Shown: piece after piece, positions 11,320 to 27,643 of the stretch
Layout of the letters: every line of letters starts with the position of its first letter
Numbering within the stretch: position 1 is the stretch's first letter
Assembly: GCA_025782575.1 (NCBI GenBank)
Contig: JALGYY010000035.1
Span: 20,670 to 84,669, forward strand
Source of the DNA: a bacterium
GTDB taxonomy: Bacteria > Orphanbacterota > Orphanbacteria > Orphanbacterales > Orphanbacteraceae
Reading direction: 5' to 3'
DNA: 64,000 nucleotides
Position numbers and translations under genes: made by a program
Notes under the pieces: model-generated
What the model saw: the letters and a program-made list of their open reading frames with translations, nothing else
What the model was told of the DNA's origin: nothing
Databases searched by the model: none

Positions 11320-11322
11320 TCG

Positions 11323-11820
11323 TTGGAGAACCTCATGCACGATCTGGGTGCCCTTCTGAATGAACAGGTGGGAGCCCTCCAACTCCTCGAGGAGGTCATC
11401 CGCAGGCAAAGGAAATTCCTGAGAGGACGGGATGTCCCCGGAATCATCGAGACCGTATCCGATCAAGGCCGCTGCCTGGAGAAGGTACACAGACTCGACC
11501 GTGAGAGGGCCCGGATCGTCCGCTCTCTCTCCGCCGATCTCGGCCTTCCGGGTGATTCTACTCTGACAACGGTTGCGAACCGGATGGACGGTGCCGCCGG
11601 TGAGGAGATTCGAGCGCTCGGTGTTGCCATGCGATCGACGCTCGAGAATATCGAGCGAGTCAACCGGGACAACCGGAGAGTGCTGCAACAATCCCTGAAA
11701 CTCGTGCAGGAAATGATGAGCGCCGCGGTGGGGTCGAAATCGACAGCCACCACATACGGTGACTCCGGAGCAATCGAACCCCAGCGGCAGTCGAGAACGC
11801 TCGTCGACCGAACTACCTGA
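11323..11820 (+). CDS. flgN: Probable flagellar export chaperone FlgN
   Basis: 165-aa helical protein directly upstream of flgK, with Leu heptads. FlgM is excluded because a clear FlgM is found at 25510. Confidence 0.5.
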   Translation: MENLMHDLGALLNEQVGALQLLEEVIRRQRKFLRGRDVPGIIETVSDQGRCLEKVHRLDRERARIVRSLSADLGLPGDSTLTTVANRMDGAAGEEIRALGVAMRSTLENIERVNRDNRRVLQQSLKLVQEMMSAAVGSKSTATTYGDSGAIEPQRQSRTLVDRTT

Positions 11821-11829
11821 GGTGTTGAG

Positions 11830-13209
11830 ATGGTCAGTCTACACGCCAGTCTAGAAATCGCCCGTCGGGCGCTGCAAACCCATCAGCTCGCGATGAGCGT
11901 CATCGGATCGAACATCGCGAACGTAAACACTCCGGGCTACTCCCGCCGGACTACCGTGATTCGTCAAACCACCGATTTCGATACACGGGCGGGCATGGTC
12001 GGTACAGGTGTGGAAGCGATCGACGTCCGGCGAGGCCGCGACATCGTTCTCGACGGTCTCTTCAGGCGTCAAAACTCCAATGTCGGTCGCTGGGACGCCC
12101 AATCCAGTTATTTGCGCCGAGTGGAAACCATATTGAGCGAGCCGGGCGAGGGTGGACTCAGCAGCTCCATGGCACGGTTCTGGGAATCGTGGCATGAGCT
12201 TGCCAAGGAACCGGATAACCTTGCACTCCGTGGCCAGGTCATTGCGCGTGCTAATGCACTGGCCGATACGTTTCACGGGCTCGACTCTCATCTCACGTCG
12301 CTTCAGGGAAGTCTGACAAATGATATTACGGGCGAGATAGACCAGATCAACCGGATTTCGGACCAGATCGCGACAATCAACAAGTCGATTGTCGAAGGAG
12401 AAGTGGAAGGGCACGAAGCGAATGCTCTCCGTGACCAGCGGGACCTTCTTATCGATCAGCTTTCTGAAATCGTCGACGTTCAGGTAACGGAGCAGGCAGC
12501 CGGATCCGTTCTCGTCCAGATCGGCTCCCAGGTTCTCGTCCAGGACGGCACGAGTCGCAATCTGGAGCTCGAAACCGGAACCGGGAACACAACGTGGTCC
12601 TCCCGCCTTGTATGGAAGGGGGGCACCACCGAGGCTGTCGTCACCGGAGGCAGGCTCCGCGGTTACCTGGTAGCCAGAGATGAAGCGATCGCGAGCTACC
12701 GCAATGATCTCGATGCGCTCGCCTCGACATTCGTGAGCCAGGTGAACGCCACGCATGCGGCCGGTACCGCTCTGGACGGCTCAACCGGCAATCTATTCTT
12801 TGATCCCACCGGCACGACTGCAAAGGACATCAGCATCAGCGATGCCGTCGCGGCCAATCTTGATTTGATCGCTGCTTCGGCAGGCGGGCAGGTCGGCGAC
12901 GGTGACCAGGCCCTGGCAATTGCCAATCTGCAAACCGGCCTTACCATGTCAGGCGGATCCGCTACTTTCGACAGTTTCTATAACACACTGACAGGGAGAA
13001 TCGGCCTGGAAGCCCAGGAGTCAAACTCGCTCCTGGACATGGAAGAAGTTCTACGACTTGATATCGAGAATCAACGACTCCAGGTGAGCGGTGTTTCCCT
13101 CGACGAGGAGATGTCGCTCCTCATATCCCATCAGCATGCTTACCAAGCAATGGTCCGGGTCACCGCCACCATCGACGAAATGATGTCGACGCTGATCAGC
13201 GCCATCTAA
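11830..13209 (+). CDS. flgK: Hook-associated protein 1 FlgK
   Basis: N-terminal 'SNIANVNTPGYSRRT' axial-family motif. C-terminal heptad region. 459 aa. Confidence 0.85.
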   Translation: MVSLHASLEIARRALQTHQLAMSVIGSNIANVNTPGYSRRTTVIRQTTDFDTRAGMVGTGVEAIDVRRGRDIVLDGLFRRQNSNVGRWDAQSSYLRRVETILSEPGEGGLSSSMARFWESWHELAKEPDNLALRGQVIARANALADTFHGLDSHLTSLQGSLTNDITGEIDQINRISDQIATINKSIVEGEVEGHEANALRDQRDLLIDQLSEIVDVQVTEQAAGSVLVQIGSQVLVQDGTSRNLELETGTGNTTWSSRLVWKGGTTEAVVTGGRLRGYLVARDEAIASYRNDLDALASTFVSQVNATHAAGTALDGSTGNLFFDPTGTTAKDISISDAVAANLDLIAASAGGQVGDGDQALAIANLQTGLTMSGGSATFDSFYNTLTGRIGLEAQESNSLLDMEEVLRLDIENQRLQVSGVSLDEEMSLLISHQHAYQAMVRVTATIDEMMSTLISAI

Positions 13210-13220
13210 AGGAGGATCCC

Positions 13221-14330
13221 GTGCGTATTCCGTCAAACTCCTTGCAGCTGAACATGACTTTCACGCTGAACCGGACCCTGGAACGCATTCAGCAGCAACA
13301 GATCCGTCTTGCCACCGGGAGGAGGATCCAGCGCCCCTCCGACGATCCCGGCGGAGTCATGCGGGCTCTCTCTCTCCGAAGGCAGATCAATGAGAACAGG
13401 CAATATCAAAGCAATATTCAGGACGGGCTGACATGGGTCACGGGTACGGAAGGGCCGCTGAACAACATAGTGGACCTTTTGAACGAACTGAAAGAAACCG
13501 CGATCCGGGCGGCGGATGACTCAGCGGATGATCGGGCACCGTTCGGCACGATCGTAGACGATCTCCTGAACGCGATGCTGGGGGAAAGCCGCGCCAAAGT
13601 GAACGGGCGTTATGTCTTTTCTGGTTTTCAGACAGACACTCCGCCGTTCATTACCAATAGTTCCATCAGCGATGAAGTATTAACAGCCGGGGCCACCGGG
13701 ACAGCCGTCAATCTGATCAACGCACGAATTGAATCGGGCACCGTCGTCCTTACCGATCTCTCCGGTGCAACGACCTACACCGAAGGGGTAGACTACTCCG
13801 TCGATTACGACGTGGGGACGATCACCCCCCTTTCCGGAGGGGCCCTCGCGAGCGGCACCGATTATCTCGCATCCTATGACACACAGAACACCAGTTCCGT
13901 AACTCCGATCGCCGATCTCGGGGGAGATGTTGTCAGGCAGATCGACTCGGACAGGACCATTCAGGTCAATCTCCTTGGCACTGATTTGTTCCAGGGGTCC
14001 GTGGACGTCTTCCAATTGACGATTGACTTGAAGAACGCACTTTGGAAGAACGATTCCGATGCTGTACGCGGCCTGCTCGATTCGATCGATCAAGCAATCG
14101 ATCACACCACAGAACAATTGGGAGTCATCGGCACTCGGGCCGCCTCCCTGCAACGAAACAATCAAATGCTGGCCTCCACCGAAATCGGGTTGGAGGAGTA
14201 TCTATCCTTGGTCGAGCATACCGATCTCGCCGAAGCGGTAATTCAGCTTCAGACCGAACAGGCCGCCTATGAGTCGGCTCTGGCCGCCACGGCCCGATTG
14301 ATGCAGGTCAACATGTTGAGCTTCCTGTAG
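13221..14330 (+). CDS. flgL: Hook-associated protein 3 FlgL
   Basis: Flagellin-like N-terminus 'RLATGRRIQRPSDDPGGV' and C-terminal 'EQAAYESALAATARLMQ'. GTG start after RBS AAAGGAGGA. Confidence 0.8.
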   Translation: MRIPSNSLQLNMTFTLNRTLERIQQQQIRLATGRRIQRPSDDPGGVMRALSLRRQINENRQYQSNIQDGLTWVTGTEGPLNNIVDLLNELKETAIRAADDSADDRAPFGTIVDDLLNAMLGESRAKVNGRYVFSGFQTDTPPFITNSSISDEVLTAGATGTAVNLINARIESGTVVLTDLSGATTYTEGVDYSVDYDVGTITPLSGGALASGTDYLASYDTQNTSSVTPIADLGGDVVRQIDSDRTIQVNLLGTDLFQGSVDVFQLTIDLKNALWKNDSDAVRGLLDSIDQAIDHTTEQLGVIGTRAASLQRNNQMLASTEIGLEEYLSLVEHTDLAEAVIQLQTEQAAYESALAATARLMQVNMLSFL

Positions 14331-14340
14331 GAGAATCAGA

Positions 14341-14811
14341 GTGAATGACAATCACCAGATGATCTCCACATCCCGCTTCGGAACGATTCAGGTATCCCCG
14401 GACAATCTCTACGAATTCCCCGGCGGTCTTTTTGGCTTTCCTGATTGCCGGCGGGTCGTGCTGATCGACCGGGATTCGGATGCACCGTTCCTTTGGCTCC
14501 AGTCGGTCGATGACGGGAATCTGGCCTTCGTCCTCATCGACCCGACCCTCTTTGATTCAAGCTACGCCCCGCCCGAGTCGCCGGAGGTTCTTACTTCGCT
14601 CGAGTGTCCTGATATCACCGAACTCGTAACTCTCGCGATCGTGGGAATCCCTGATGACGTAAGCGGTATGACCGCCAATCTCAAAGGCCCGATTCTGCTG
14701 AATCCGACGTCCCATCTGGGTAGGCAGATCATTCACAGCGGCGACTATTCTTCGCGGGTCCACATTCTTGACGCCATTCAATCCGGGTGCCGGGCATCCG
14801 GAAGCACCTAG
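14341..14811 (+). CDS. fliW: Flagellar assembly factor FliW
   Basis: 'FGTIQVSPDNLYEFPGGLFGFPDCRRVVLI...PFLWLQSVDDGNLAFVLIDP' matches the FliW family. Followed by csrA. Confidence 0.85.
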   Translation: MNDNHQMISTSRFGTIQVSPDNLYEFPGGLFGFPDCRRVVLIDRDSDAPFLWLQSVDDGNLAFVLIDPTLFDSSYAPPESPEVLTSLECPDITELVTLAIVGIPDDVSGMTANLKGPILLNPTSHLGRQIIHSGDYSSRVHILDAIQSGCRASGST

Positions 14812-14822
14812 CGAGAAGACCC

Positions 14823-15014
14823 ATGTTGCTCATCACAAGAAGATCAGGCCAGTCGATCCGAATCGGCGAAGACATCGTCATCACGATCCGGACCGTCCGA
14901 GGCAAGCAGGTTCAGGTTGCGATAGAAGCGCCACTCGACATCATCGTCGTTCGCACCGAGCTCCCCCCGAAGGAAATCGCCGGCGGGGCGGAGGAACCGG
15001 CCCATGATCGTTGA
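14823..15014 (+). CDS. csrA: Carbon storage regulator CsrA
   Basis: 'MLLITRRSGQSIRIGEDIVITIRTVRGKQVQVAIEAPLDIIVVRTEL' is a near-canonical CsrA. The ORF-track start at 14787 is an N-terminal over-extension. Confidence 0.88.
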   Translation: MLLITRRSGQSIRIGEDIVITIRTVRGKQVQVAIEAPLDIIVVRTELPPKEIAGGAEEPAHDR

Positions 15015-16143
15015 TCTCGATTGCCGCCATTTCCCCGGCGACAGGCCGTGCGTCCATCACAAGACTTCCGGGGCTATCTGTGAAACCTGTAAACATGGCG
15101 AGAAGGTCGGATTCCGAGTCCTGATTATTAAGCTCGATGCCCTGGGCGATGTCCTTCGGACCACGTGCATCCTTCCGGCAATCAGGAGCGAGTGGCCCAG
15201 GTGTCAGATCACATGGATTACCTCGCCTGAGGCGATCCCCCTGCTCTCCGGCAATCCACTGATCGATGAGCGCTGCTCACTGCATGATGCGCCTGCCCGC
15301 CTGGCCGCAGAGCATTTTGACCTTGTCCTCAATCCCGATGCCTCCAAACGAAGCGCCGCCCTGGCGTCGATGGCGAGTGCGAATGAGAAGCGAGGTTATC
15401 TGCTTCGCCCAGACGGCCAGGTCGTCCCCGCGAACGACGAAGCGGCTGACTGGCTCGTGCTGGGGGCGAGGGATGACATGAAGAAGGCCAACCGTGAAAC
15501 TTATCAGTCCCACATTCATCGGCAGCTATGCCTTGATCCGTCCGAGCAGCAAATCTCACTGATTTTGACAGCCTCCGAACGTGAAGACGCGCGCCGGCTT
15601 CTCGCTAAGTCAGGTGTATCGGAGCGACCGATGGTCGGATTGAACACCGGATCCAGCAAGAGATGGAAACACAAGAGCTGGATACCGGAGAGATTCGCGG
15701 AACTGGCTAGACTTCTTGCAGGAGAAAAGTGCGGACCGGTTGTTCTTATCGGCGGACCTGCGGAGCAGGATCAGAACCGCTGGATTGAAAAAGCGAGCGG
15801 TGGGTCGGCAGTGGCGATCGACACGGGGTCCGGCCTCAGAGCGTATGCGGCTCTCGTAGGATCGTGCGGCGTGCTCGTTACCGGCGACACCCTGGGACTC
15901 CACGTTGCGATCGCTCTTGAGCGGCGGGTGGTGGCGCTTTTCGGACCGACATCATCGTCGGAGATCGATCTATACGGCTGCGGAATCCGCGTGGTTCCCG
16001 ACCTGGATTGTATTTGCTGTTATCAAGGAGACTGCGATGTCTCTCCCCATTGCATGGAATCCATTTCTGTTGAATCGGTCCTTTCAAAAATTCTCGATCA
16101 GGCCGGCCTCGTCCCTGAGGGGATGCTCGCCCAAACCATCTGA
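15004..16143 (+). CDS. GT9-family glycosyltransferase (heptosyltransferase-like) with N- and C-terminal Cys clusters
   Basis: 'RVLIIKLDALGDVLRTTCILPAIRSEWP' is a GT9 N-domain signature. 'GPVVLIGGPAEQD' and 'GVLVTGDTLGLHVAIAL' are C-domain signatures. Cys motifs are C-x9-C-x9-C-x2-C (N-terminal) and C-x-CC-x4-C-x5-C (C-terminal). It overlaps the csrA stop by 11 nt. Confidence 0.75.
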   Translation: MIVDLDCRHFPGDRPCVHHKTSGAICETCKHGEKVGFRVLIIKLDALGDVLRTTCILPAIRSEWPRCQITWITSPEAIPLLSGNPLIDERCSLHDAPARLAAEHFDLVLNPDASKRSAALASMASANEKRGYLLRPDGQVVPANDEAADWLVLGARDDMKKANRETYQSHIHRQLCLDPSEQQISLILTASEREDARRLLAKSGVSERPMVGLNTGSSKRWKHKSWIPERFAELARLLAGEKCGPVVLIGGPAEQDQNRWIEKASGGSAVAIDTGSGLRAYAALVGSCGVLVTGDTLGLHVAIALERRVVALFGPTSSSEIDLYGCGIRVVPDLDCICCYQGDCDVSPHCMESISVESVLSKILDQAGLVPEGMLAQTI

Positions 16144-16151
16144 AGGAGGAA

Positions 16152-17162
16152 GTGAAGAAAATGGAGTTTACCGGCGAGCGACTCGTTCCCACGGCGGATG
16201 GCTGGGACGACCTCTTCTTCGAGCACATCACTCGCTATCGGTTCGCGGCGTCATTGGTGAAAGGCAAGCACGTTCTCGACGCGGGATCAGGGTGCGGTTA
16301 CGGCGCCTGTCACATGGCACGTCGCGGCGCTCAATCTGTTTCCGGGATCGATATCGCGTCGGAAGCGGTGAATTACGCACGTGAGCACTTCAAAGAGGAT
16401 GGTCTCCGGTTCGATACCGCCGACGTGCTCGACACCGGCCTCGAGACGGGGAGCTTTGATCGCATCGTCTCTTTCGAGGTTTTTGAGCATGTGGAGCGGC
16501 CCGATCGATTTCTGAACGAGATGAAACGTCTGCTCGCTCCAGGCGGCCTCTTTCTGGTTTCCACTCCCAACGTGCATACATATGTGGCCGGGGGCAAGGA
16601 CGGTGAGAATCCATTTCATGTAAAGGAATATTCCCCGGATGAATTCCAGGAGCTGCTGGAAGCGAGCTTCTCTGTTATTGAACTCTACGCTCAGACAGGG
16701 ACTGCCGGTATCGGAATCATTCCCTGTCACACAGGCGAAGACCGAAGCCCGGAATGCCACGCCCGTCTCGGGCTCGTTTTCCCACCCTCCGAATCTCCGT
16801 GGGGCGAACCGGCTCCCCCACGTGTCGACATCGACACATGCTCCTACATGATTGCGATCTGCGCCATGGAGCCGATCCCCGCCGACCTTCTTCCCTCGCC
16901 GGAATGGTACGTGCTCGGGGAGTCACTTTCCGGCAGGGATGCCGATTATCAGTCCGTTCAAGAGCTTCAGGAAAACCTGATCTCTCGCACGCGGTGGGTA
17001 GAAGAGTTGCAGCGAGAAATCGATCACCGTGATCAGACGATTCGCACACTCCAGGCAGAATTTGATGACCGATCCAGATGGGCGCTCGAACTCGATGCGA
17101 AAGTCAGGGAGCTGACCAGCCAGATCGGCAAGCTTAAGAACCGGGCGGGAATCAGCCCGTGA
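16152..17162 (+). CDS. Class I SAM-dependent methyltransferase with C-terminal coiled coil
   Basis: Motif I 'VLDAGSGCGYGA'. Post-I acidic 'GIDIA'. Motif II/III 'IVSFEVFEHV...LAPGGLFLVSTPN'. C-terminal heptad region 'WVEELQREIDHRDQTIRTLQAEFDDRSRWALELDAKVRELTSQIGKLKN'. Confidence 0.8.
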   Translation: MKKMEFTGERLVPTADGWDDLFFEHITRYRFAASLVKGKHVLDAGSGCGYGACHMARRGAQSVSGIDIASEAVNYAREHFKEDGLRFDTADVLDTGLETGSFDRIVSFEVFEHVERPDRFLNEMKRLLAPGGLFLVSTPNVHTYVAGGKDGENPFHVKEYSPDEFQELLEASFSVIELYAQTGTAGIGIIPCHTGEDRSPECHARLGLVFPPSESPWGEPAPPRVDIDTCSYMIAICAMEPIPADLLPSPEWYVLGESLSGRDADYQSVQELQENLISRTRWVEELQREIDHRDQTIRTLQAEFDDRSRWALELDAKVRELTSQIGKLKNRAGISP

Positions 17163-17184
17163 ACTCCAGGGAAGGAGCTTCGTC

Positions 17185-20100
17185 ATGAAGACAGTGTCAA
17201 AGGGACCGAAACGAGCGCCGGTCATCGCCATCTTGAGTTATAATCGGGTGAAACTGCTCCGAAAGTGCATCGAGAGCATTTTCGCCAACACGAGCGCCGA
17301 CTACCGAATCTGCGTGGTGGACCAGGCTTCCACCGACGGTACGCGAAACTATCTGAAGAAACTGGGTGACCGGATCGATCATATGGCCACCGACGAGAAT
17401 CACGGCTTCGTCGATGGAAACAATCTCGTCATGGAGGAGTACGCCGAAAGCGACGTCGTACTCCTGAACAATGACACGGAAGTTCAGCCCGGCTGGCTCA
17501 CGGCTCTGGTCGATCGTGCCTATTCTGATCCGACGATCGGAGTGGTCGGGGCTAAACTGATCTATCCGGACGGGCTCCTGCAGGCAGCCGGATGTGAGAT
17601 CTTTTCTGACGCTTCGGGTCGGGAAATCGGCAAGTACGACGATCCCTCTCGTTTTATTTACAACCAGACCGCCGACGTTGACTACTGTTCGGGTGCTTGC
17701 TTGTACGTGAAGCGTGAGACTCTGAATCAAACAGGGTTCTTCGACACACAATACGCGCCGGCCTACTGGGAGGATACCGACCTCTGCTTCGCCGCTCGTG
17801 ACGCGGGCTATCGGGTGGTCTACGAACCACAGTCGGTCGTCGTTCATCACGAGGGGGGGAGCTTCGGCTCGGCCCATGCCCAATCCCGTTCAAGCGAACT
17901 TCAAGATCGAAACAGACCGAAATTCATCAAGAAATGGTCCAGCGCGCTTGCTGCGCAACGAGACAGTATCTATCGCATCCCCGGGCAGGAAGGGAAGGAG
18001 AAGATCCTCGTCATCCTGCCGTTCCTCCCGCTTTACGATCGAGCTGCGGGAGAGATGCGCTGGTTCCATACTCTGAAACTGTTAACGAAACGCTATCAGG
18101 TCGTCTTCCTTGCACGAAACGGGCAGGACGGCATCAAGTACATCAATCCCCTCGAGAAGATGGGCATTACCGTATTCCATACCGATCAGGAGCGGCTCCG
18201 CCAGCTCGGGACTGAAATGACAGGGCCCGTCTGGATCGATTTTCCCGCCTTGCTGCAAGCGAATGATTTCAAGGCGGTAATCGTCGGCTTCTATCATGTG
18301 GCCGCCCAGTACTACAAGGATATCAGGCAGTTTTCTCCTGAAGCGAAACTGATTGTCGATTCATTCGATGTAGCCTTCCTGCGCGAAAGGCGCCGGGCGG
18401 AGATCACAGGCAAGGACGAGGACCTCTGGCATGCGGAGGAAGTGCGGCGGATTGAACTGGGATGGTACGAAAAGTTCGACATGGTTCTCACGGTTACCGA
18501 AGAAGACCGAGACATTCTTCTAAAGGAGAACCGGTCCCTGGCAATCGGTATCTCGACAGATATTCATCCCGTTCCGGAAGGAGAATGGACACCGGGGCGG
18601 CATGATCTCGTTTACATCGGAAACTTCAAGCATCAGCCCAACGAAGATGCCGTCCTCTATTTTGCTGAAGAGGTCCTCCCGAAGATTCACGAGGAGATCC
18701 CGGACGCCCGGTTTCTCATTGTCGGCAATGCGCCGACCAAGAAGATCAAAGCATTGGCAGGCGACCGCGTTGTGGTTACCGGATTCGTCCCCGATATCGT
18801 TCCCTACCTCCGGCGGGCGGCTGTCTGTGTCGTCCCTCTTCGATACGGAGCCGGGCTGAAAGGCAAGGTCGGCCAGGCGATGGCAGCGGGCTGTCCCCAG
18901 GTCATGACTTCGATCGGTGCAGAGGGGATGGGCATCGTCCACGAAAGAGACGCTCTGATCGCCAATGGTGCGAATGAATTTGCTCGAGAGACGATTCGAC
19001 TCTATCAGGATCCCGCCATGCAGGAGAAGATCGCCCGGAATGCCAGACAACTGGTGGCCGATCGATACAGCTATGAGAAAGCGGCGGAGTATTGGGAGGA
19101 AGTGTTCGAGTTCATCGAGAACAAGACACCGCCGGAAATTAGCAGGCTGGAGGAGAAAAAGATATCCGGAACAGGATATCTCCGCCTGGCGGAGAGCCGG
19201 TCGATCGTCCCCCGGGTAAGTATCATCATTCCCGTACTCGACAATCTCTCCCTCACTACGAGCTGCTGGACGAGTATTCGCAAGAACACGCGAATTCCGT
19301 ATGAGCTCTTGATCATCGACAACGGCTCCACAGAACCCATCGCTCTCGATGCAACCCTGAACAACTATCGTTGCATTCGAAACGATACGAATCTCGGGTT
19401 CGCCGCGGCGATCAATCAGGGTATTCGAAACAGCCAGGGAGAGTACGTCGTTCTCCTGAATAACGACACGGTCGTCACGCCCGGTTGGCTGGAGAGCATG
19501 ATCAAACACATCGACAGGGATTCGACGATCGGCATCGTCGCCCCCCTCACCAACTACGCCAATACGGAGCAACGAATTCCGGTTGACTACCATGACGAGA
19601 AGGAGCTTTACCGGTTCAGCAGCAAACTGGCCAAACGGAACCGTGGACAGAGCAGACAGCTTCGGAAGGTGATCGGGATGTGTATGGTAATTCCGCGGCG
19701 GGTGATCGAAGAAATCGGGCTCTTCGATGAGCGCTTCGGTATCGGGAATTTCGAGGATGATGATTTTTGCCTCCGGGCCCGGTTGGCGGGATACAAAGTA
19801 GTCTGTGCGCAGGATTCCTATATCCATCATGAGGGAGGCAAGACCTTCGAAAGAATCGATTTGGACTATGCGGCTCTTCTCAAGACCAACTCAGAAATCT
19901 ATATGAAGAAATGGGCTCCCGTTCTTTCCAGAAGCTCGAACCAGGAGGAGCCCGAGGTTGCGCCACTTACGACGATTCTCTATCAGGATAATGGATCATT
20001 GGTACCTGAGGAGATTCAGTCCACCCTGGAGGATCTCCCCGCCGGTACGGATCTCAGAATTCTCTGCACGGATGAGTCGAAGTTCTCCGTCTTTCAAGAC

Positions 20101-21090
20101 AGCAAGATCCCGATCGACAACGTCCCCGCGGGAGATTTCTATGGCCGCCTCGACGAGATCATCCGATCGTGCCGGTCCCCGTTTATTATGCTGCTTTCTA
20201 CTTCAATCAAAGGTGAGAAGGGATGGTTCGACCAGATGCTCGAACTGGCCGAGGCACGGCAATCCTTCGGTATGATCCTCCCGAAGACGGATGACTTCGA
20301 AGGACACTGTCTCCTGATCAAGAGAAGCGATTATCTCACGGCAGGCGGATTCTCAACTCTCTTCCATTCTGCGGCCGGGTGGGCCGATCTCGCGGGTCGC
20401 ATGGAAGCCGGGGGATCACCCACGAGCATCGCTCGCGGAGCGAAGGTTGCGTATACCGGCGGTCCCGACGGGTTCTCACGGATCGATGGCCGGGAGCGCA
20501 AGGCGGTAACCCGTCTGCATGAGGCTGCGGGCCATTTCGCATCGGGAGACAACGCGAGCGCGGAAAGCTGCATACGTGAATCGCTCGCCTTCAAGCCGGA
20601 CTACACGTCCGCTCTCCATCTTCGGGCCGCTCTTCATATAGCGGCATCCGAACCGGGCCTCGCCGAGTCCGATCTCGCCGAGATACTCAGGATCGAGCCG
20701 AATGACTGCCGTGCCCTTAACGCCCTCGGTTGTCTCGCCTTCAATCAGGGGAGTACAGGTGAAGCCGAGAAGCGCTTCCTGGAAGCCTTGGTGCATGAAC
20801 CGAAGAACAGCGACGTTCTGCGGAACCTGGCCGATATTTACTTCGGACGTGGAGCGATCGTCCAGGCGATGACGCTATACGGCCGTCTGGTCGAACAGGA
20901 TCCCGACAATACGGAAACGTATCTGGCCCTCGGCGCCTGGTTCGAGGAGTTGGGGGAGTGGGAGGGAGCGGCAGACTGGTACAGGCAGGCTCTTCGCGTA
21001 GATGAGACGTGCGACGGGGCGAGCGAGCGACTCGCGGCGATCACCGCCGCGGGTGCAGGCAGCAACACCGGCTCGAGCCATGTCCACTAG
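17185..21090 (+). CDS. 1301-aa multidomain glycosyltransferase: GT2 - GT4 (GT-B) - GT2 - unknown domain - TPR repeats
   Basis: GT2 domain 1: 'AILSYNRVKLL...VVDQASTDGT...VLLNNDTEV'. GT4: 'VYIGNFKHQPNEDAV...FLIVGN...VCVVPLRYGAGLKGKVGQAMAAGCPQVMTSIGAEG'. GT2 domain 2: 'VSIIIPVLDN...LLIIDNGSTEP...VVLLNNDTVV'. C-terminal TPR-like repeats (aa ~1110-1270). Confidence 0.8.
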   Translation: MKTVSKGPKRAPVIAILSYNRVKLLRKCIESIFANTSADYRICVVDQASTDGTRNYLKKLGDRIDHMATDENHGFVDGNNLVMEEYAESDVVLLNNDTEVQPGWLTALVDRAYSDPTIGVVGAKLIYPDGLLQAAGCEIFSDASGREIGKYDDPSRFIYNQTADVDYCSGACLYVKRETLNQTGFFDTQYAPAYWEDTDLCFAARDAGYRVVYEPQSVVVHHEGGSFGSAHAQSRSSELQDRNRPKFIKKWSSALAAQRDSIYRIPGQEGKEKILVILPFLPLYDRAAGEMRWFHTLKLLTKRYQVVFLARNGQDGIKYINPLEKMGITVFHTDQERLRQLGTEMTGPVWIDFPALLQANDFKAVIVGFYHVAAQYYKDIRQFSPEAKLIVDSFDVAFLRERRRAEITGKDEDLWHAEEVRRIELGWYEKFDMVLTVTEEDRDILLKENRSLAIGISTDIHPVPEGEWTPGRHDLVYIGNFKHQPNEDAVLYFAEEVLPKIHEEIPDARFLIVGNAPTKKIKALAGDRVVVTGFVPDIVPYLRRAAVCVVPLRYGAGLKGKVGQAMAAGCPQVMTSIGAEGMGIVHERDALIANGANEFARETIRLYQDPAMQEKIARNARQLVADRYSYEKAAEYWEEVFEFIENKTPPEISRLEEKKISGTGYLRLAESRSIVPRVSIIIPVLDNLSLTTSCWTSIRKNTRIPYELLIIDNGSTEPIALDATLNNYRCIRNDTNLGFAAAINQGIRNSQGEYVVLLNNDTVVTPGWLESMIKHIDRDSTIGIVAPLTNYANTEQRIPVDYHDEKELYRFSSKLAKRNRGQSRQLRKVIGMCMVIPRRVIEEIGLFDERFGIGNFEDDDFCLRARLAGYKVVCAQDSYIHHEGGKTFERIDLDYAALLKTNSEIYMKKWAPVLSRSSNQEEPEVAPLTTILYQDNGSLVPEEIQSTLEDLPAGTDLRILCTDESKFSVFQDSKIPIDNVPAGDFYGRLDEIIRSCRSPFIMLLSTSIKGEKGWFDQMLELAEARQSFGMILPKTDDFEGHCLLIKRSDYLTAGGFSTLFHSAAGWADLAGRMEAGGSPTSIARGAKVAYTGGPDGFSRIDGRERKAVTRLHEAAGHFASGDNASAESCIRESLAFKPDYTSALHLRAALHIAASEPGLAESDLAEILRIEPNDCRALNALGCLAFNQGSTGEAEKRFLEALVHEPKNSDVLRNLADIYFGRGAIVQAMTLYGRLVEQDPDNTETYLALGAWFEELGEWEGAADWYRQALRVDETCDGASERLAAITAAGAGSNTGSSHVH

Positions 21091-22585
21091 GCACTCGCTC
21101 TCTGTCTGCTATATCGCGAAGAATGAATCGGACAACCTCGCTCGATCGATCGCCTCGATTGCCTCGGTCGCCGATGAGATTATCGTCGCCGACACAGGAT
21201 CGTGCGACGGAACACAGGATCTTGCCCGCAGTCTTGGAGCGAGGTTGATCGATATTCAGTGGACGGATGACTTTTCCCAGGCGAGAAACGCGTCACTCGA
21301 AGCGGCGAGCGGCGACTGGGTACTTTGCCTGGACGGAGACGAACGATTTGAAACAGGGCAGAACAAAACTCTCCGACGTCTGATCCGTCCGGGGGGGGGA
21401 GGGGGAGGAGACGCCTACACCGTCTGTCTCGTGAGCCGACTGGCAGGTGATCAGACCGGACAGGTCTACGAACATCTTTATCCCCGCCTGTTTCGAAACC
21501 GTCCTTCTTATCGATTCCGGGGCCGGGTTCATGAGCAGATCGGTCCTTCCATCATGCAGGCGGGAGGCAAAATCAAGCCGTCCGGACTTCGCATCGATCA
21601 TACAGGCTACACTCTTCAAGGTGACGCCCGTCTTGCGAAATCAAGAAGAAACCTAACTCTTCTTCTTCTCGATGAGAATGACAATCCCCATGACGGCCTC
21701 ATTCAATATCATTTAGGGGAGACCTATTCCGTTCTCTCCGACAACGTCCGCGCGGTCCTTGCCTATGAAAATGCGATACGGTCCGGCGAACTGAGTATGA
21801 ATCACATGTCGTTCGCCCATCAGAATCTGGCAGCAGCCGAGAACAAGTTGGGAAACCATCGGGAAGCGGAGGAACACGCTCGCCAGGCGATTCGCATCGA
21901 CCGGACAGCCGGCCCCGCCTACCTGATCCTTGCTTCCGCCCTCATTCGCCTCGGAAGCTATGATGAAGCGGTCCGCGCCGCCGATCGCCACCTGAAAGTG
22001 AAGCCCGGCGCGCATGCAGCCGTTCGCTTCCGTCCGGATCCTGCCAAGGCCTGGTTTCTTAAAGGGGAGGCTCTTCTCCGCGGAAAGCGGGTCGACGAGG
22101 CACTCGAATCGGCCGAAAAATCGGTTCACGCCGCTCCCGGGCTTGCGGCGGGGTACCGGCTTCGAGCAAGGGTCCATATTGCAACTGGAGAGGCTCTGAG
22201 GGCAGAGGCCGACTGGAAGAAGGCCCTCTCTATCGATCCGCGTGATCCGACCACGTGGCAGGCGCTCCTGACCCTCCAGACAAGAAGCGGCACACCGGCC
22301 GCCCTTCTTTCAACAGCCGATCGAGCGGTCGCGGCCACCGGCCATCCGTCGCTTTTCGAGATTCAGGCCTCGCTCCGGCTTCAATCGGGCGATCAGACAG
22401 GTGCGATTCAGAGTTTCGAGTCCGCGCTCCGCGGATCGTCCGACCCGGCCCGGATCCACAGGCTTCTTGCCGGGCTTCACCACCGGAACGGCCACGCGGA
22501 ACGCGCCCGCTATCATTTCGATCAGATCAACCAGATTGTCTCCTCTACGGTCATCCCTTCCCACGAGCATCAAAAAACTCCGTAA
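21080..22585 (+). CDS. GT2-family glycosyltransferase with C-terminal TPR repeats
   Basis: 'LSVCYIAKNESDNLARSIASIASVADEIIVADTGSCDGT' is a WaaE/KdtX-like GT2 N-terminus with a 'DGDE' motif. A TPR region follows (aa ~230-500). The internal ATG at 21080 is used; the 21002 start overlaps the preceding gene. Confidence 0.75.
   Translation: MSTRHSLSVCYIAKNESDNLARSIASIASVADEIIVADTGSCDGTQDLARSLGARLIDIQWTDDFSQARNASLEAASGDWVLCLDGDERFETGQNKTLRRLIRPGGGGGGDAYTVCLVSRLAGDQTGQVYEHLYPRLFRNRPSYRFRGRVHEQIGPSIMQAGGKIKPSGLRIDHTGYTLQGDARLAKSRRNLTLLLLDENDNPHDGLIQYHLGETYSVLSDNVRAVLAYENAIRSGELSMNHMSFAHQNLAAAENKLGNHREAEEHARQAIRIDRTAGPAYLILASALIRLGSYDEAVRAADRHLKVKPGAHAAVRFRPDPAKAWFLKGEALLRGKRVDEALESAEKSVHAAPGLAAGYRLRARVHIATGEALRAEADWKKALSIDPRDPTTWQALLTLQTRSGTPAALLSTADRAVAATGHPSLFEIQASLRLQSGDQTGAIQSFESALRGSSDPARIHRLLAGLHHRNGHAERARYHFDQINQIVSSTVIPSHEHQKTP
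21391..21405 (+). repeat. Homopolymeric tract G9-A-G5 inside GT2-TPR coding sequence (encodes Gly6)
   Basis: Direct reading: ccg ggg ggg gga ggg gga gga gives 'PGGGGGG'. Confidence 0.8.
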
Positions 22586-22600
22586 ACCACGCGCCAGGGG

Positions 22601-22628
22601 TCAAGTTCTCCCTCTCTCTTGCGATTAG
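22601..22628 (+). promoter_or_regulatory. Candidate sigma-28 (FliA) promoter for flagellin: TCAAGTTC-N11-TGCGATTA
   Basis: 6/8 match to the TAAAGTTT -35 and a CGAT-core -10 with 11-nt spacing. It lies about 115 nt upstream of the fliC ATG. Confidence 0.4.
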
Positions 22629-22743
22629 ATCTACAGAAGAAGATTCATAGGGAATCACCGGTTGCTCACGGATGAATAACCGACACAGTGCGGCAGGGAC
22701 GCCAAGAGAACTTCGTGAGATTTCACGAAAGGAGAATGCGGAA

Positions 22744-23586
22744 ATGGCCGGTGCCGATCTTTCTAGGATTAACACAAACGTAGCCGCCCTGAATGCGCTG
22801 AAAGCCCTCCGGGACACTAACCAGAAACTTGCTATCCACCAGCTGCGCCTCGCGACCGGTAAGCGTATCAACAGCGCCGGCGAGGATCCGGCGGGTCTCG
22901 TCTTCGCCAAGCGTCTCGAGTCACGTGCCCGCGGCCTTGCCGTTGCACGGGACAACGTAGGTGATGTTCAGAATCTGCTTTCCACCGCTGAAGGCGGCGC
23001 GCAGAGCATCAGCGAGATTCTTCTCACAATGAAAGAGAAGATCCTGCAGGCAGCGAATGATACGCTGGGAACTGAAGAGCGGGCCGCGGTCGAATCGCAG
23101 CTCGATGACCTCGCCGCGGAAATTGACGATATTGTCGGCGCCACACTCTGGGGGGGCCAGCAGCTCCTGGACGGCTCCTTCACCGGGAAGCAGTTCCAGG
23201 TCGGTGAGCGGGCAGCCGATACGATGAGCTTCGGTGTCACCCAGAACCACGGTGCTGCGACGCTCGCCGTCGCCGACTCTGATCTCGACGTCAGCAGCGC
23301 GGCGACTTCGTCGACCGCTCTCTCCAATGTCAATACCGCAATCAACACGATCAACACGAGCCTCCAGAATCTGGGGTCGACCCAGCTCCGTGTGGGGATC
23401 AAAGAGGCGAACATCTCCGTGTCGATCAACAACCAGCTTGCGGCTCATAACCGGATCTTTAACGCCGATATGGCCGCCGAGCAGATCGAGCTCTTGAAAA
23501 ACTCCCTCCTGCAGCAGTCGGCGACCGCGATGCTCTCCCAGGCAAACCTCGCGCCGCAATCGGTGTTGCAGCTGATTCTGGGATAA
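22744..23586 (+). CDS. fliC: Flagellin
   Basis: N-terminal D0/D1 'INTNVAALNALKAL...LRLATGKRINSAGEDPAG'. C-terminal 'AEQIELLKNSLLQQSATAMLSQANLAPQSVLQLI'. RBS AAAGGAGAA then ATG at 22744. The ORF-track start at 22672 is an over-extension. Confidence 0.9.
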   Translation: MAGADLSRINTNVAALNALKALRDTNQKLAIHQLRLATGKRINSAGEDPAGLVFAKRLESRARGLAVARDNVGDVQNLLSTAEGGAQSISEILLTMKEKILQAANDTLGTEERAAVESQLDDLAAEIDDIVGATLWGGQQLLDGSFTGKQFQVGERAADTMSFGVTQNHGAATLAVADSDLDVSSAATSSTALSNVNTAINTINTSLQNLGSTQLRVGIKEANISVSINNQLAAHNRIFNADMAAEQIELLKNSLLQQSATAMLSQANLAPQSVLQLILG

Positions 23587-23602
23587 TTAGCCGGATAGTC
23601 CG

Positions 23603-23628
23603 CCCGGAGGGGGTTTTCCCCCTCCGGG
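23603..23628 (+). terminator. GC-rich hairpin (11-bp stem CCCGGAGGGGG/CCCCCTCCGGG, TTTT loop) 17 nt after fliC stop
   Basis: Perfect inverted repeat. The downstream U-tract is weak (GGGUUCCCCCUU), so this may be a terminator or an RNA-stabilising stem-loop. Confidence 0.45.
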
Positions 23629-23655
23629 TTCCCCCTTATCTCGAGCGACATAAAG

Positions 23656-23663
23656 GCCGATAT
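23656..23663 (+). promoter_or_regulatory. Candidate sigma-28 -10 element GCCGATAT upstream of fliS
   Basis: 7/8 match to GCCGATAA. It sits 19 nt upstream of the fliS ATG, just 5' of RBS AAGGAG. The -35 is weak. Confidence 0.35.
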
Positions 23664-23681
23664 AAGGAGTAGGTGCAGACC

Positions 23682-24053
23682 ATGAAAGAGGGACCGATGA
23701 CATTACAAGGAAACGTATTGCCAGGTGAGGCGGCCGAAGCCTACGGCACTTCCGCGATTGAAGGGGCCACGCCCGGCCGGCTCGTACTCCAGACGTACGA
23801 CCATATTATCAAGTGCTGCCGGAAAAAGGACGTCGGGAGAGGAAAGAAAGGTCTGGTCGAGCTGCAGAGCGCGCTGAACCTGGACTACCTCGAAATCTCC
23901 GGCCCTCTCTATCGCATCTATGAATACTGCACCGACCGCCTGCGAGATGAAAAATTCGCAGAAGTGGCACAAGTAATGACCGACCTTCGCTCATCCTGGT
24001 CCAAGATCGTGAGGATCTCCGAGAGGGGTGGCGGGGGGAACAGCGAAGGCTGA
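23682..24053 (+). CDS. fliS: Flagellin-specific export chaperone FliS
   Basis: 'AYGTSAIEGATPGRLVLQTYDHIIKC' and 'LDYLEISGPLYRIYEYCTDRL' match the FliS family. ATG at 23682 with an RBS is preferred over the GTG at 23673. Confidence 0.8.
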   Translation: MKEGPMTLQGNVLPGEAAEAYGTSAIEGATPGRLVLQTYDHIIKCCRKKDVGRGKKGLVELQSALNLDYLEISGPLYRIYEYCTDRLRDEKFAEVAQVMTDLRSSWSKIVRISERGGGGNSEG

Positions 24054-24058
24054 CCGGG

Positions 24059-25477
24059 ATGATTGAATTTCAATCCATACGATCTGCTGAACTGAACCAG
24101 TTCCTGGAAGTCTTTCAGGCACGGTCGACGTTTCAGCTGGATTCGGTCAAGAGCCTTCGAGACGCGCTGGAACTGAAGACCACGATCTATAACGATCTGA
24201 AGACCAAGCTCAAGGCCCTGAAAAAAATGACGGACGACTTCTCCCAGACGGGTAGTCTTTCCGCATTCGGGGCGAAGACCGTATCGGTGAGCGACGAGTC
24301 GATCCTGCGGATCTCCGCGGGCGGCGGTTCCTCGGCATTGTCTCACTCGATTCACGTCGATCAGCTCGCAAGGGCTCACTCCGTACTCTCTGACCGATAC
24401 ACACAGACCGGTACAGAGTTGAGCGCGGCTCATGCCGGCACCAAGAATTTCTCGATCACAGTAGATGGAACACAGTACGACGTCAGCGTGGTCATCAATT
24501 CGGGCGACGACAATCAGACTGTTCTGAAATCCGTCGTCGACGCGATCAATGCCGTGGACGACATCGAAGCGGTCGGATCCAGCATCAACGACACCGATAC
24601 GACGACGAAATTGTCCATCACGAGTGAGGAGACCGGGACGAAGAATAAAATGACGTTCACGGACACCGACGGCCTTCTCGCTTCACTCGGAGTGACCAAT
24701 ACATCGGCCGCGACGGATACGGCCGGTGGGTACATCTACCAGGACTCCGGCGGAAGCGAGTTGGACGCCAAGCTCACCGTGGACGGCATCAATATCGTTC
24801 GCTCGAGCAACACCCTGACCGATGTGGTCGCAGGGGCGACTCTGGAGCTTCTCGGAGCCCAGGAGGCGACAGACCCTGACGTATCGGTAAGTATTGCGGT
24901 CGACACTGAAGCGATTACCGCCAAAGTGCAGGAATTCCTTGATGCATTTAATGATGCCCATGGATATATCACAGCCAAAGTCAACGTCGATCCGACCACT
25001 TATGCACGCGGCGACCTTGCCGGAGACTCTCCTTACGTTAATCTCTGGCAGAATCTCCGCTCATCCATGGCGAATTCAGTCCCGAGCTCCTCGAGCGAGG
25101 TTTTCTCGGCCCTTTCCCAGATCGGGATCACCTCCGGAGCGACCGGGAATTTTTCGATTACCAATACGTCCAATTTCGATGATGCCCTGAACGAGAATCT
25201 GGACGCCGTTGAAGCACTGTTCAACGCATCTGACGGCATCGCTGTCCGACTCGAAGAGCTCCTGGATAACTACACGGATGTCAGCGGGATCATCGACTCG
25301 AGTAAGAATTCCGTAACCGACAGGGTCGATCTTCTGGACAATAAGATCGACCGGCTTGAGCGACTCCAGGCAATGGAGGAGAAGCGCCTGATCGAACAGT
25401 ATGGCGCGATCCAGGAGGCCACGATTTTGAATCAGTCGATTCTCCAGATGGTGAATAGCCTGTATTCAGGATTCTAA
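24059..25477 (+). CDS. fliD: Flagellar filament cap protein FliD
   Basis: 472 aa. N-terminal helical region, central S/T-rich beta region, C-terminal coiled coil 'DRVDLLDNKIDRLERLQAMEEKRLIEQYGAI'. Position after fliS. Confidence 0.7.
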   Translation: MIEFQSIRSAELNQFLEVFQARSTFQLDSVKSLRDALELKTTIYNDLKTKLKALKKMTDDFSQTGSLSAFGAKTVSVSDESILRISAGGGSSALSHSIHVDQLARAHSVLSDRYTQTGTELSAAHAGTKNFSITVDGTQYDVSVVINSGDDNQTVLKSVVDAINAVDDIEAVGSSINDTDTTTKLSITSEETGTKNKMTFTDTDGLLASLGVTNTSAATDTAGGYIYQDSGGSELDAKLTVDGINIVRSSNTLTDVVAGATLELLGAQEATDPDVSVSIAVDTEAITAKVQEFLDAFNDAHGYITAKVNVDPTTYARGDLAGDSPYVNLWQNLRSSMANSVPSSSSEVFSALSQIGITSGATGNFSITNTSNFDDALNENLDAVEALFNASDGIAVRLEELLDNYTDVSGIIDSSKNSVTDRVDLLDNKIDRLERLQAMEEKRLIEQYGAIQEATILNQSILQMVNSLYSGF

Positions 25478-25509
25478 CGTGGCCATGCGAAAGGAGAAGG
25501 GGGGGTGAC

Positions 25510-25812
25510 ATGAGAATCGAATCAGGAGCACCCATCCAACCCTCGGGAAGAGGGGACAAAGCGACGAACGATCGAAAGGTCGAGAAGCGCGCCGAGAAGA
25601 AGAGTGATCGTGACTCGGTCCAGATCTCGCCTGAAGCGCGAAGCCTGCATGATGGGAGCATCATCAGCAAGAGTGCGGCGCGCGTTTCCGATTCCGCTCT
25701 TGACGAGAGCAGAATCTCCGAGATCAGAGAGCGCCTGGAATCGGGTTACTACGATTCCAAAGAGGTTCTGCTGACCGTGGCCGTCCGTGTCCTCGAAGTC
25801 TTCGGCATTTGA
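25510..25812 (+). CDS. flgM: Anti-sigma-28 factor FlgM
   Basis: 100 aa. C-terminal 'ESRISEIRERLESGYYDSKEVLLTVAVRVLEVF' is the FlgM sigma-28-binding signature. Confidence 0.75.
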   Translation: MRIESGAPIQPSGRGDKATNDRKVEKRAEKKSDRDSVQISPEARSLHDGSIISKSAARVSDSALDESRISEIRERLESGYYDSKEVLLTVAVRVLEVFGI

Positions 25813-25845
25813 CGCACCGGACGACTTAAAAGTTTCCGGTCGTCC

Positions 25846-25861
25846 TGGACATCGGTTTGCC
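25846..25861 (+). promoter_or_regulatory. Weak sigma-54-like element CTGGACATCGGTTTGCC upstream of flbD-motA
   Basis: GG-N10-GC spacing with a TTGC -12. The -24 is a 4/6 match. A TAAAAGTTT motif sits 11 nt upstream. Confidence 0.3.
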
Positions 25862-25887
25862 ATCCGGCAAGGAGGCCACGCTGATAC

Positions 25888-26085
25888 ATGATCGTTCTTA
25901 CACATCTCAACGGAAATAAGATCGTGCTTAACGCCGATCTCATCGAGAGCCTCGAGGCGACTCCCGACACGTTGATCACCTTGACCAACGGGAAAAAATT
26001 CCTGGTCAAGGAATCGGTAAATGAGGTTACCGAGAGGATTGAAGCGTATGCGCTGAGAATCCATTGCCACTCCCATGAAGCCTGA
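25888..26085 (+). CDS. flbD: Flagellar protein FlbD
   Basis: 'MIVLTHLNGNKIVLNADLIESLEATPDTLITLTNGKKFLVKESVNEV' is a near-consensus FlbD family sequence. Confidence 0.8.
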   Translation: MIVLTHLNGNKIVLNADLIESLEATPDTLITLTNGKKFLVKESVNEVTERIEAYALRIHCHSHEA

Positions 26086-26896: not shown

Positions 26897-27643
26897 GTGG
26901 CGAAGGAAAAGCGGGAGGTAATACAGGAAGAAAACGCTTCCTGGCTCGCGACATTCGGTGATCTCGCCACACTGCTATTCACGTTCTATTGCCTGATCTA
27001 CGCATCCTGCACTTATCGGCCCGGGGATTGGGAGACAGCCAAGAGCGCCGCCCTCGAGAAGATGCTCTCCGTGCTTGCCGGCGGTTCGAAGATGAGTCTC
27101 GTGGAAGGTCAGGGAGACGGCCCGATGACCGGCCAAAACGGGGTGATCCCGCTGTTCGCCTCCGGATCGGAGATGGCGGAGGAAGAGCGTAGCCGGATGT
27201 CCGATCGGATCGAAGAGGCGAGCGCCCTCATGCCGGAAAAGGGGGGCATCGAATTGGAGGGAACCGAAAGCGGCATCGTGTTTCGGATCGGAGACGCCAT
27301 CGTGTTTCCATCGGGGAGCGTCACGCCGGCGCCGAGAACGATGCCCTTCCTCGCGGCGGTGGCAGCGCTGATCCGTGTCAGACCGGCTGAAGTGACCGTC
27401 GTCGGTCATACCTGTGACCTCCCCACATACAGCTTGCGCTACCCGTCCAACTGGGAGTTATCCGGATTCCGGGCGGCTGCAGTCGCGCGAGAACTCATCC
27501 GAGAGGGGCTCGGAGATTCCAGTCTTAAGATCCGAGCCGCCGGTGAGCATTATAGCCGAGTGCCGAACCTCGATGAGGAGAGCCGCAGGCTGAACAGGCG
27601 AGTCGAGATCCGAGTCGATTTCCCCGAACTTATCGGAGAGTAG
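26897..27643 (+). CDS. motB: Flagellar motor stator protein MotB (OmpA-like)
   Basis: GTG start. TM 'WLATFGDLATLLFTFY' with the conserved Asp. C-terminal OmpA/MotB peptidoglycan-binding domain 'NWELSGFRAAAVAREL...LNRRVEIRV'. Confidence 0.8.
   Translation: MAKEKREVIQEENASWLATFGDLATLLFTFYCLIYASCTYRPGDWETAKSAALEKMLSVLAGGSKMSLVEGQGDGPMTGQNGVIPLFASGSEMAEEERSRMSDRIEEASALMPEKGGIELEGTESGIVFRIGDAIVFPSGSVTPAPRTMPFLAAVAALIRVRPAEVTVVGHTCDLPTYSLRYPSNWELSGFRAAAVARELIREGLGDSSLKIRAAGEHYSRVPNLDEESRRLNRRVEIRVDFPELIGE

Follow-up and report, generated by a model that had tools for sequence, protein, structure and literature searches.

Filament assembly, motility and recognition by phages and by the immune system are all influenced by the glycans that flagellin carries; to our knowledge, nearly all characterised examples come from pathogens and a small number of model bacteria. 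The subject here is a cassette of four genes lying between csrA and fliC in a flagellar locus of an uncultured, Eisenbacteria-like bacterium (contig JALGYY010000035.1, assembly GCA_025782575.1), of which a stretch of 64,000 nucleotides (nt), called the window in what follows, was analysed. The genes encode a GT9-family glycosyltransferase (GT), an S-adenosylmethionine (SAM)-dependent methyltransferase, a large protein of 1301 amino acids (aa) in which GT2, GT4 and GT2 domains are followed by tetratricopeptide repeats (TPR), and a smaller GT2-TPR protein; an earlier note on this DNA had placed four consecutive genes with these domains between fliW-csrA and fliC, and so they were found, on the + strand (Table 1). 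From the comparison of sequences and gene neighbourhoods, it is probable that the four products, as soluble cytoplasmic enzymes, O-glycosylate flagellin before its export by the flagellar type III system. Glycosyltransferase genes directly beside fliC in a flagellar locus are the mark of a flagellin glycosylation island, and this arrangement is present here and kept in relatives.

The closest described systems are enzymes that modify flagellins or other polypeptides. GmaR of Listeria monocytogenes, a bifunctional protein in which a glycosyltransferase domain is followed by TPRs, transfers N-acetylglucosamine (GlcNAc) to a short flagellin of about 280 aa in the cytoplasm (PMC9638930). FlmG of Caulobacter is a cytoplasmic flagellin O-glycosyltransferase expressed before flagellin secretion, whose N-terminal TPR domain binds flagellins and whose C-terminal GT-B domain transfers pseudaminic acid (PMC7591256). 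Moreover, the TPR domain of Maf-1 binds flagellin (as cited in PMC13317340), and a GT2+TPR enzyme encoded next to fliC is already in use as a marker for flagellin glycosyltransferases (PMC13317340). In the type B system of C. difficile (GT1, GT2, GT3), encoded next to fliC, a GT2-family enzyme named GT1 adds an N-acetylhexosamine (HexNAc), and a second enzyme, named GT2 and carrying a PF08241 methyltransferase domain, then extends it with methyl-rhamnoses (PMC5207246). Finally, SunS and ThuS combine a GT-A domain with a helical repeat domain and S-glycosylate cysteines of small secreted peptides.

The GT2-TPR enzyme of the window has the domain order of GmaR, with an N-terminal GT2 domain of GT-A type (aa 3-195) followed by a TPR superhelix (approximately aa 205-490). 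Residues 3-195 match the glycosyltransferase domain of GmaR (22ao_A, residues 10-198) with an E-value of 9e-25, the two catalytic domains being homologous over about 190 residues, and SunS is matched more weakly; the NCBIfam model for SunS gave an E-value of 4e-15. In the AlphaFold2 (AF2) model, of high predicted confidence (pLDDT 93.8), aa 182-490 form an all-helical repeat, and Foldseek returned SunS and ThuS, enzymes which share this architecture and act on a polypeptide substrate, as the best structural matches, followed by consensus-TPR and OGT TPR structures. Unlike the SunS and ThuS systems, the locus has no glycocin precursor or transporter. Judged by its sequence, the GT2-TPR enzyme is a GmaR/SunS-type member without the regulatory domain of GmaR, and it is neither of FlmG type nor of Maf type. 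Membership of the FlmG type is excluded by domain content and order, since both TPR enzymes of the cassette carry an N-terminal GT2 domain and C-terminal TPRs, whereas FlmG has its TPRs first and a GT-B domain; nor were nonulosonic-acid genes found among the scanned open reading frames (ORFs) of the window. Membership of the Maf family is excluded as well, as none of the four proteins matched the Pfam families MAF_flag10 or DUF115 at E <= 0.01. The TPR modules had earlier been likened to those of FlmG: two of the enzymes do carry TPRs, but FlmG is a functional analogy only and the GmaR/SunS type is closer.

GmaR is also an anti-repressor, and the GT2-TPR gene lies inside a FliW-CsrA-fliC control circuit (see below), which could suggest that its product is mainly regulatory. 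This is extremely improbable: the protein has 501 aa as against 637 in GmaR and lacks the anti-repressor domain, the C-terminal chain of GmaR gave no match to it at E <= 0.01 (only the glycosyltransferase-domain chain was found), no MogR-like gene was seen in the window, and the acidic and other residues of the catalytic domain are invariant in 42 homologues. A further difference from GmaR is that the window enzyme is accompanied by three further enzymes, for which reason an oligosaccharide would be expected instead of a single GlcNAc.

The association of the cassette with flagella was surveyed by searching a profile of the large enzyme against one genome per GTDB species, which yielded 80 loci, and by comparing the flagellar and island proteins of the window with the six-frame ORFs of these loci; linkage was counted in loci flanked by 4 kb or more of sequence, and flagellar genes were scored if they lay within 10 kb. 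Of the 28 loci whose large-enzyme homologue reached 600 bits or more (close homologues), 23 had flagellar genes nearby, 20 a flagellin gene and 24 a GT2-TPR partner, as against a single locus in each category among the 32 with distant homologues (below 450 bits), which have the GT2-GT4-GT2 domains without TPRs and occur in Wenzhouxiangella, Halioglobus, cyanobacteria and others. The difference in flagellar linkage (23/28 vs 1/32) gives a Fisher exact p of 9e-11 for loci that are not phylogenetically independent. From these counts, the TPR-bearing large enzyme and its GT2-TPR partner are a flagellum-associated pair well beyond the Eisenbacteria-like lineage, the linked lineages including Calditrichota, Ignavibacteriota/Melioribacter, Neomarinimicrobiota, Desulfobacterales, Syntrophales, Bacillota, Verrucomicrobiia and Nitrospiraceae. 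A two-enzyme core, with a putative GmaR-like initiator and a GT2-GT4-GT2-TPR extender, thus recurs beside fliC in Eisenbacteria, Calditrichota, Ignavibacteriota, Neomarinimicrobiota and others, and the prediction is testable because some of the linked lineages have cultured members (Caldithrix, Ignavibacterium, Melioribacter). On one unassigned metagenome contig (L005), six glycosyltransferase genes stand between csrA and fliC with an exact sigma-54 site of their own ahead of them.

As a separate observation, the large-enzyme homologue of Caldithrix abyssi (locus L006, 2892-8450) has 1852 aa and an extra sulfotransferase domain and is encoded directly after flgK-flgL; its sequence hints that the flagellar glycan of this species is sulfated.

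The 1301-aa enzyme probably has three active catalytic domains, as the acidic motifs of each show no variation among 35 homologues. Its catalytic part matched only generic GT2/GT4 enzymes in the PDB, and its GT2 and GT4 domains resemble those of polysaccharide synthases (chondroitin synthase, EpsD, HpsN). This resemblance, together with the absence of flagellar linkage among the distant TPR-less homologues, would fit the alternative that all four enzymes make a product other than glycosylated flagellin, such as lipopolysaccharide (LPS), exopolysaccharide (EPS) or a sheath-like polymer, the position in the operon reflecting co-regulation only. Such a product is very unlikely, given that the four-gene island has no gene for a flippase, ABC exporter, polymerase, ligase or lipid-carrier initiating transferase, that all four proteins lack membrane segments (the controls MotA and FlhA being positive), that the GT2-TPR enzyme has homologues in GmaR and SunS, whose substrates are proteins or peptides, that both TPR enzymes carry protein-binding arrays, and that the link to fliC across phyla is strong.

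With flagellin as the acceptor, the cassette may operate as follows. The enzymes would be produced from a sigma-54-type operon before the translation of flagellin is freed from CsrA. The GT2-TPR enzyme would dock on flagellin through its TPR superhelix and place the first sugar, probably a HexNAc, on serine or threonine (S/T) residues of an exposed central patch, after which the 1301-aa enzyme, tethered to flagellin by its own TPRs, could extend the chain with up to three different linkages. GT9 might add a heptose-type sugar from an ADP-activated donor and the methyltransferase may O-methylate the glycan, possibly as a cap, before the modified flagellin is exported by the flagellar type III system; with glycosylation completed in the cytoplasm before type III export, the island would need no flippase or exporter. 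In this scheme we infer which molecule is modified, in what order the enzymes act, which sugars are donated and that a methyl cap is added. The multi-sugar, possibly methylated flagellin O-glycan predicted in the earlier note finds support, at the level of sequence comparison, in synteny, in the homology to GmaR, in the cross-phylum linkage and in a methyltransferase-glycosyltransferase fusion described below. The fuller proposal, in which an uncharacterised multi-phylum module would build an oligosaccharide or short polymer on flagellin, to which Eisenbacteria would add GT9 and the methyltransferase to give a heptose-containing, methyl-capped glycan, is possible though rather unlikely; if true, such a glycan would be the first case of flagellin heptosylation.

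Several observations weigh against flagellin glycosylation by the four enzymes. The flagellin has 280 aa and D0/D1 domains only, with 15% S/T overall, and its S/T patch (aa 183-215, nt 23290-23388; eight S/T within residues 181-200, VSSAATSSTALSNVNT...) is short. For five of the 28 loci with a close homologue of the large enzyme, the surrounding 10 kb contain no flagellar gene. Neither donor nor acceptor can be read from the GT2, GT4 and methyltransferase domains, which are of generic types. As had been noted before, nucleotide-sugar synthesis genes, which commonly but not always accompany such islands, did not turn up: none, whether of pse, leg, rml, gmh or other type, was found in a scan of all but a few of the window's ORFs of 150 aa or more. 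The source organism is known from a metagenome-type assembly only. Finally, the nearest relatives of GT9 outside Eisenbacteria (45-50% identity) stand, in all three cases examined, in polysaccharide or LPS-type loci: one adjoins GmhA- and HldE-like ADP-heptose genes and a Wzx flippase (L007), another belongs to a GT2-GT4-GT9-methyltransferase string near KdsB-like and acyltransferase genes (L008), and the third lies amid GT4 genes, PMT_2 and Wza/Wzc (L009).

Because of the company these relatives keep, GT9 is best read, from sequence, as a recruited glycan-building enzyme that more likely acts on a sugar than on the flagellin polypeptide; it would be a candidate for the transfer of a heptosyltransferase-family enzyme from polysaccharide to protein-glycan synthesis. 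The protein scores 73.6 bits against PF01075 (cut-off 22) and its AF2 model (pLDDT 91.5) has a GT-B fold, with 3TOV, WaaF (1PSW) and WaaC as the top Foldseek matches; residues D49, K224 and D295 align with D13, K192 and D261 of WaaC, which we take to be the catalytic and ADP-heptose-binding residues. Unlike WaaC and WaaF, it lies in a flagellar genomic context and has two extra clusters of four cysteines (Cys4), one N-terminal (C7, C16, C26, C29) and one C-terminal (C336, C339, C344, C350), which are invariant in 44 homologues from several phyla, fall outside the regions aligned to 3TOV, WaaF and WaaC, and are probably two metal sites. The subfamily is tightly conserved across phyla, with 43-57% identity. 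The protein does not reach the level of an LPS heptosyltransferase I, II or III equivalog (WaaC, WaaF, WaaQ), its NCBIfam scores being far under the cut-offs (TIGR02201, 76 vs 170; TIGR02193, 75 vs 185; TIGR02195, 68 vs 135). The autotransporter heptosyltransferase TibC is a cytoplasmic heptosyltransferase able to modify protein; a TibC-like role was set aside, the fold match to TibC (E 1e-7) being much weaker than those to WaaF, WaaC and 3TOV.

The main alternative to a four-enzyme flagellin pathway is a split function, in which the GT2-TPR and large enzymes act on flagellin, and GT9 and the methyltransferase belong to LPS-core or polysaccharide synthesis, their genes being no more than passengers in the flagellar operon. 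The non-flagellar glycan loci of the 45-50% identical GT9 homologues would agree with this, as would a fold nearest to LPS heptosyltransferases and not to a protein heptosyltransferase. It is nevertheless unlikely, for GT9 is translationally coupled to csrA, about eight genomes have GT9 and the methyltransferase at the same place within the cassette, a homologue of the methyltransferase is fused to a large enzyme in a flagellin locus, and the LPS heptosyltransferase scores fall short as given above. In addition, the cassette GT9s form one clade apart from those of polysaccharide context (in an approximate, midpoint-rooted neighbour-joining tree), and weak GT9-like ORFs directly precede the large enzyme in the flagellin loci of Ignavibacteria and Melioribacter. 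The separate clade, the conserved coupling to csrA, these GT9-like ORFs and the sub-cut-off LPS scores favour a role of GT9 in the flagellar glycan.

The methyltransferase has a class I SAM-dependent catalytic domain (approximately aa 30-180) and a C-terminal tail (approximately aa 265-336) that appears coiled-coil-like when the sequence is read by eye. Its residues 1-293 align with the N-terminus of P0101 (34% identity, E 2e-40), a methyltransferase-GT2-GT4-GT2 fusion encoded in the flagellin locus L017, and this fusion argues that the cassette methyltransferase acts on the product of the large enzyme. Methyltransferase domains recur across the surveyed large-enzyme loci. FliB of Salmonella is a lysine methyltransferase; a comparable role is less likely here, because the window enzyme has its counterpart fused to glycosyltransferases. 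WbdD, of which the coiled-coil-like tail is reminiscent, is a terminator that sets the chain length of O-antigen. A PDB sequence search gave only generic class I methyltransferases, with a weak match to the methyltransferase part of WbdD (E 5e-5), and by analogy the cassette enzyme might set the length of the glycan chain on flagellin.

As an observation apart, locus L017 (8331-18283; uncultured bacterium, CAVQBK010000003.1) carries, before fliC, the fusion, a GT2-TPR gene and four more methyltransferase genes, which suggests a heavily methylated glycan in that organism.

As to the acceptor, the flagellin is short, as are those of Listeria, Caulobacter and C. difficile, which are glycosylated. 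Its patch varies in sequence but is S/T/A-rich in eight flagellin orthologues, which fits an exposed acceptor region, weak evidence when taken alone; the S/T-rich central segment of the earlier note is there, as a short and modest patch. The target could also be another flagellar protein (FlgL, FlgK, FliD) or several axial proteins, instead of or besides flagellin. The cassette is most likely co-transcribed with flgK and flgL; in Caldithrix loci the pair comes immediately after flgK-flgL, and the available sequence showed no fliC; and, among the window proteins compared, FliD has the highest S/T content (21%). Such a target carries little probability when set against the direct adjacency of the pair to fliC in most phyla and the action of the known GT2-TPR enzymes of the GmaR family on flagellin (PMC9638930).

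In its logic, with a HexNAc-initiating GT2 followed by an extending enzyme and methylation, all encoded next to fliC, the predicted pathway resembles C. difficile type B. It differs in that the extender has three catalytic domains and TPRs, the methyltransferase is a separate gene, a GT9 is present, and the genes lie upstream of fliC in the flgKL-fliW-csrA operon with no adjacent sugar-synthesis genes. The enzyme combination had been called potentially novel, which was an overstatement, since a GT2+TPR enzyme beside fliC (PMC13317340) and the pairing of an initiator with a glycosyltransferase/methyltransferase (PMC5207246) were known. What is new is the combination of a Cys4-cluster GT9 with a methyltransferase that has its own gene and a coiled-coil-like tail and with a TPR enzyme of three catalytic domains, the placement of this cassette between csrA and a CsrA-controlled fliC, and the flagellar linkage of the two-enzyme core in many little-studied phyla; no publication describing the cassette was found in the open-access full-text literature. 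The concept of the flagellin glycosylation island is left unchanged, its enzymology and taxonomic range being extended.

The cassette is conserved in relatives. Homologues of the 1301-aa protein with 45-61% identity come from metagenome-assembled genomes labelled Candidatus Eisenbacteria or unnamed, and the order flgK-flgL-fliW-csrA-GT9-methyltransferase-large enzyme-GT2-TPR-fliC-fliS-fliD is identical in nine loci (L001/L002, L003, L004, L010-L014), with 45-60% identity of the cassette proteins. As L001 and L002 are two assemblies of one contig and L010 duplicates L001, the nine represent about eight distinct genomes. The earlier note had GT9 overlapping the csrA stop codon: the overlap is real, the GT9 start codon (ATG 15004) lying within the 3' end of csrA, stop codon included, by 11 nt, but the csrA frame had to be changed to one of 63 aa, replacing ORF 14768-15007. 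This junction is close in relatives too, where the two genes overlap by 11 or 17 nt or stand 2 nt apart. The start of the GT2-TPR gene is most likely ATG 21080, giving 501 aa; it overlaps the preceding stop codon (21088-21090) by 11 nt, and likewise in relatives. Furthermore, in the NCBI version of one related contig (L002, GCA_030630205.1; 14052-15538) the GT2-TPR gene is split into two ORFs, being intact in the ENA version (L001, 14052-15539), a discrepancy likely due to assembly or a frameshift.

The gene string that begins with flgF (6431) and closes with the GT2-TPR gene (ending at 22585) comprises 15 genes, and all 14 gaps between them measure at most 26 nt, four being overlaps. The 404-nt gap before flgF contains, 56 nt upstream of that gene, the element TGGCACGCGCTTTGC, the sole zero-mismatch instance of TGGCAC-N5-TTGC in 64 kb, where about 0.15 would be expected by chance. 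A generic scan of 6000-25900 for sigma-70 promoters and terminators gave nothing above chance, inside the gene string or elsewhere in that range. Co-transcription of the cassette with a sigma-54-driven flagellar operon, as had been proposed, is thus supported at the level of sequence signals; the upstream genes, announced as rod, hook and hook-associated ones, proved to be rod, ring and hook-associated genes, with no hook gene in the string. The four enzyme genes are most likely made together with the hook-associated and FliW/CsrA genes, fliC being controlled separately. Since they form the distal end of the sigma-54-type operon, the enzymes would be present when fliC is expressed from its sigma-28-like promoter with the leader derepressed. 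Exact sigma-54 sites also precede glycosyltransferase genes in L005 (4178-4192) and L027 (6636-6650), and no sigma-54 activator gene was identified in the window.

The fliC gene starts at ATG 22744, behind an AGGAG Shine-Dalgarno sequence and 158 nt from the end of the four-gene cassette. Its promoter emerged only by alignment with the upstream regions of fliC in seven related loci, where it reads CTAAAGTTTT-N11/12-(G/T)CGATA; the strict sigma-28 consensus TAAA-N14-16-GCCGATA had no match in the window, and TCAAGTT-N12-GCGATT is the only such site on its + strand. In the leader, the columns GGCA(A/G)GGA-N-GCC are invariant in eight otherwise divergent sequences, and the GGA sits in a hairpin loop in the relatives L001 and L011. 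Folded singly, the leader is not significantly more stable than shuffles (z -0.95), so the assignment of a CsrA site rests on conservation. In the locus fliW adjoins csrA, and GGA occurs in the fliC leader both in the conserved motif and within the Shine-Dalgarno sequence, an arrangement shared with B. subtilis, where CsrA represses hag and FliW relieves the repression (as described in PMC13443453). This suggests a similar CsrA/FliW checkpoint in the present lineage, for which a machine-learning study of 2026 predicted few 'functional' CsrAs in Eisenbacteria (PMC13443453). The glycosylation enzymes would then be wired into the FliW-CsrA flagellin checkpoint.

Table 1. Positions of the cassette genes, domains and control elements in the 64-kb window
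Feature	Position (nt)	Strand	Basis or remark
Sigma-54-type -24/-12 promoter element TGGCACGCGCTTTGC	6361-6375	+	Exact consensus
flgF, flgG, flgA, flgH, flgI, flgJ, flgN, flgK, flgL, fliW, csrA	6431-15014	+	Pfam; upstream part of gene string
fliW	14341-14811	+	Pfam FliW
csrA (63 aa)	14823-15014	+	Pfam CsrA, E 2e-15
GT9 gene	15004-16143	+	PF01075, E 2e-20
SAM methyltransferase gene	16152-17162	+	Methyltransf_11, E 1e-22
GT2-GT4-GT2-TPR gene (1301 aa)	17185-21090	+	Pfam and NCBIfam
Large enzyme, GT2-a (~aa 13-240)	17221-17904	+	Glycos_transf_2
Large enzyme, GT4-type domain (~aa 473-643)	18601-19113	+	Glyco_trans_1_4 at aa 473-609
Large enzyme, GT2-b (aa 676-890)	19210-19854	+	Glycos_transf_2
Large enzyme, TPR array (~aa 1102-1290)	20488-21054	+	Resembles OGT TPRs
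GT2-TPR gene (501 aa)	21080-22585	+	Pfam TPR_1, TPR_2, TPR_16; GmaR/SunS matches
Sigma-28-like fliC promoter TCAAGTT-N12-GCGATT	22601-22626	+	Alignment with related loci
fliC leader: CsrA-type GGA hairpin motif GGCAGGGACGCC (22692-22703) and Shine-Dalgarno AGGAG (22730-22734)	22692-22734	+	
fliC, flagellin (280 aa)	22744-23586	+	Flagellin_N and Flagellin_C

In the remainder of the window, two other glycan-related genes were seen, both distant from the cassette: a Bac_transf gene (39219-40031, - strand) and a polysaccharide deacetylase gene (43904-44794, - strand). Upstream of flgF lie flhB, flhA, a sigma-28-like fliA and an ORF of 404 aa. The longest ORF of fliA (3712-4527) overlaps flhA (1659-3773) by 62 nt, and its true start is probably further downstream than 3712. 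The 404-aa ORF (4812-6026, + strand), situated between fliA and flgF, had no Pfam match at E <= 0.001 and may be an undescribed flagellar or regulatory protein. Downstream of the cassette, the flagellin gene is followed by fliS, fliD, a flgM-like gene, motA, two motB genes and an HDOD gene. The motB-like genes stand in tandem after motA (26897-27643 and 27646-28371) and precede the HDOD-domain gene (28401-29273), an arrangement that is also present in the related loci L001, L003 and L004.

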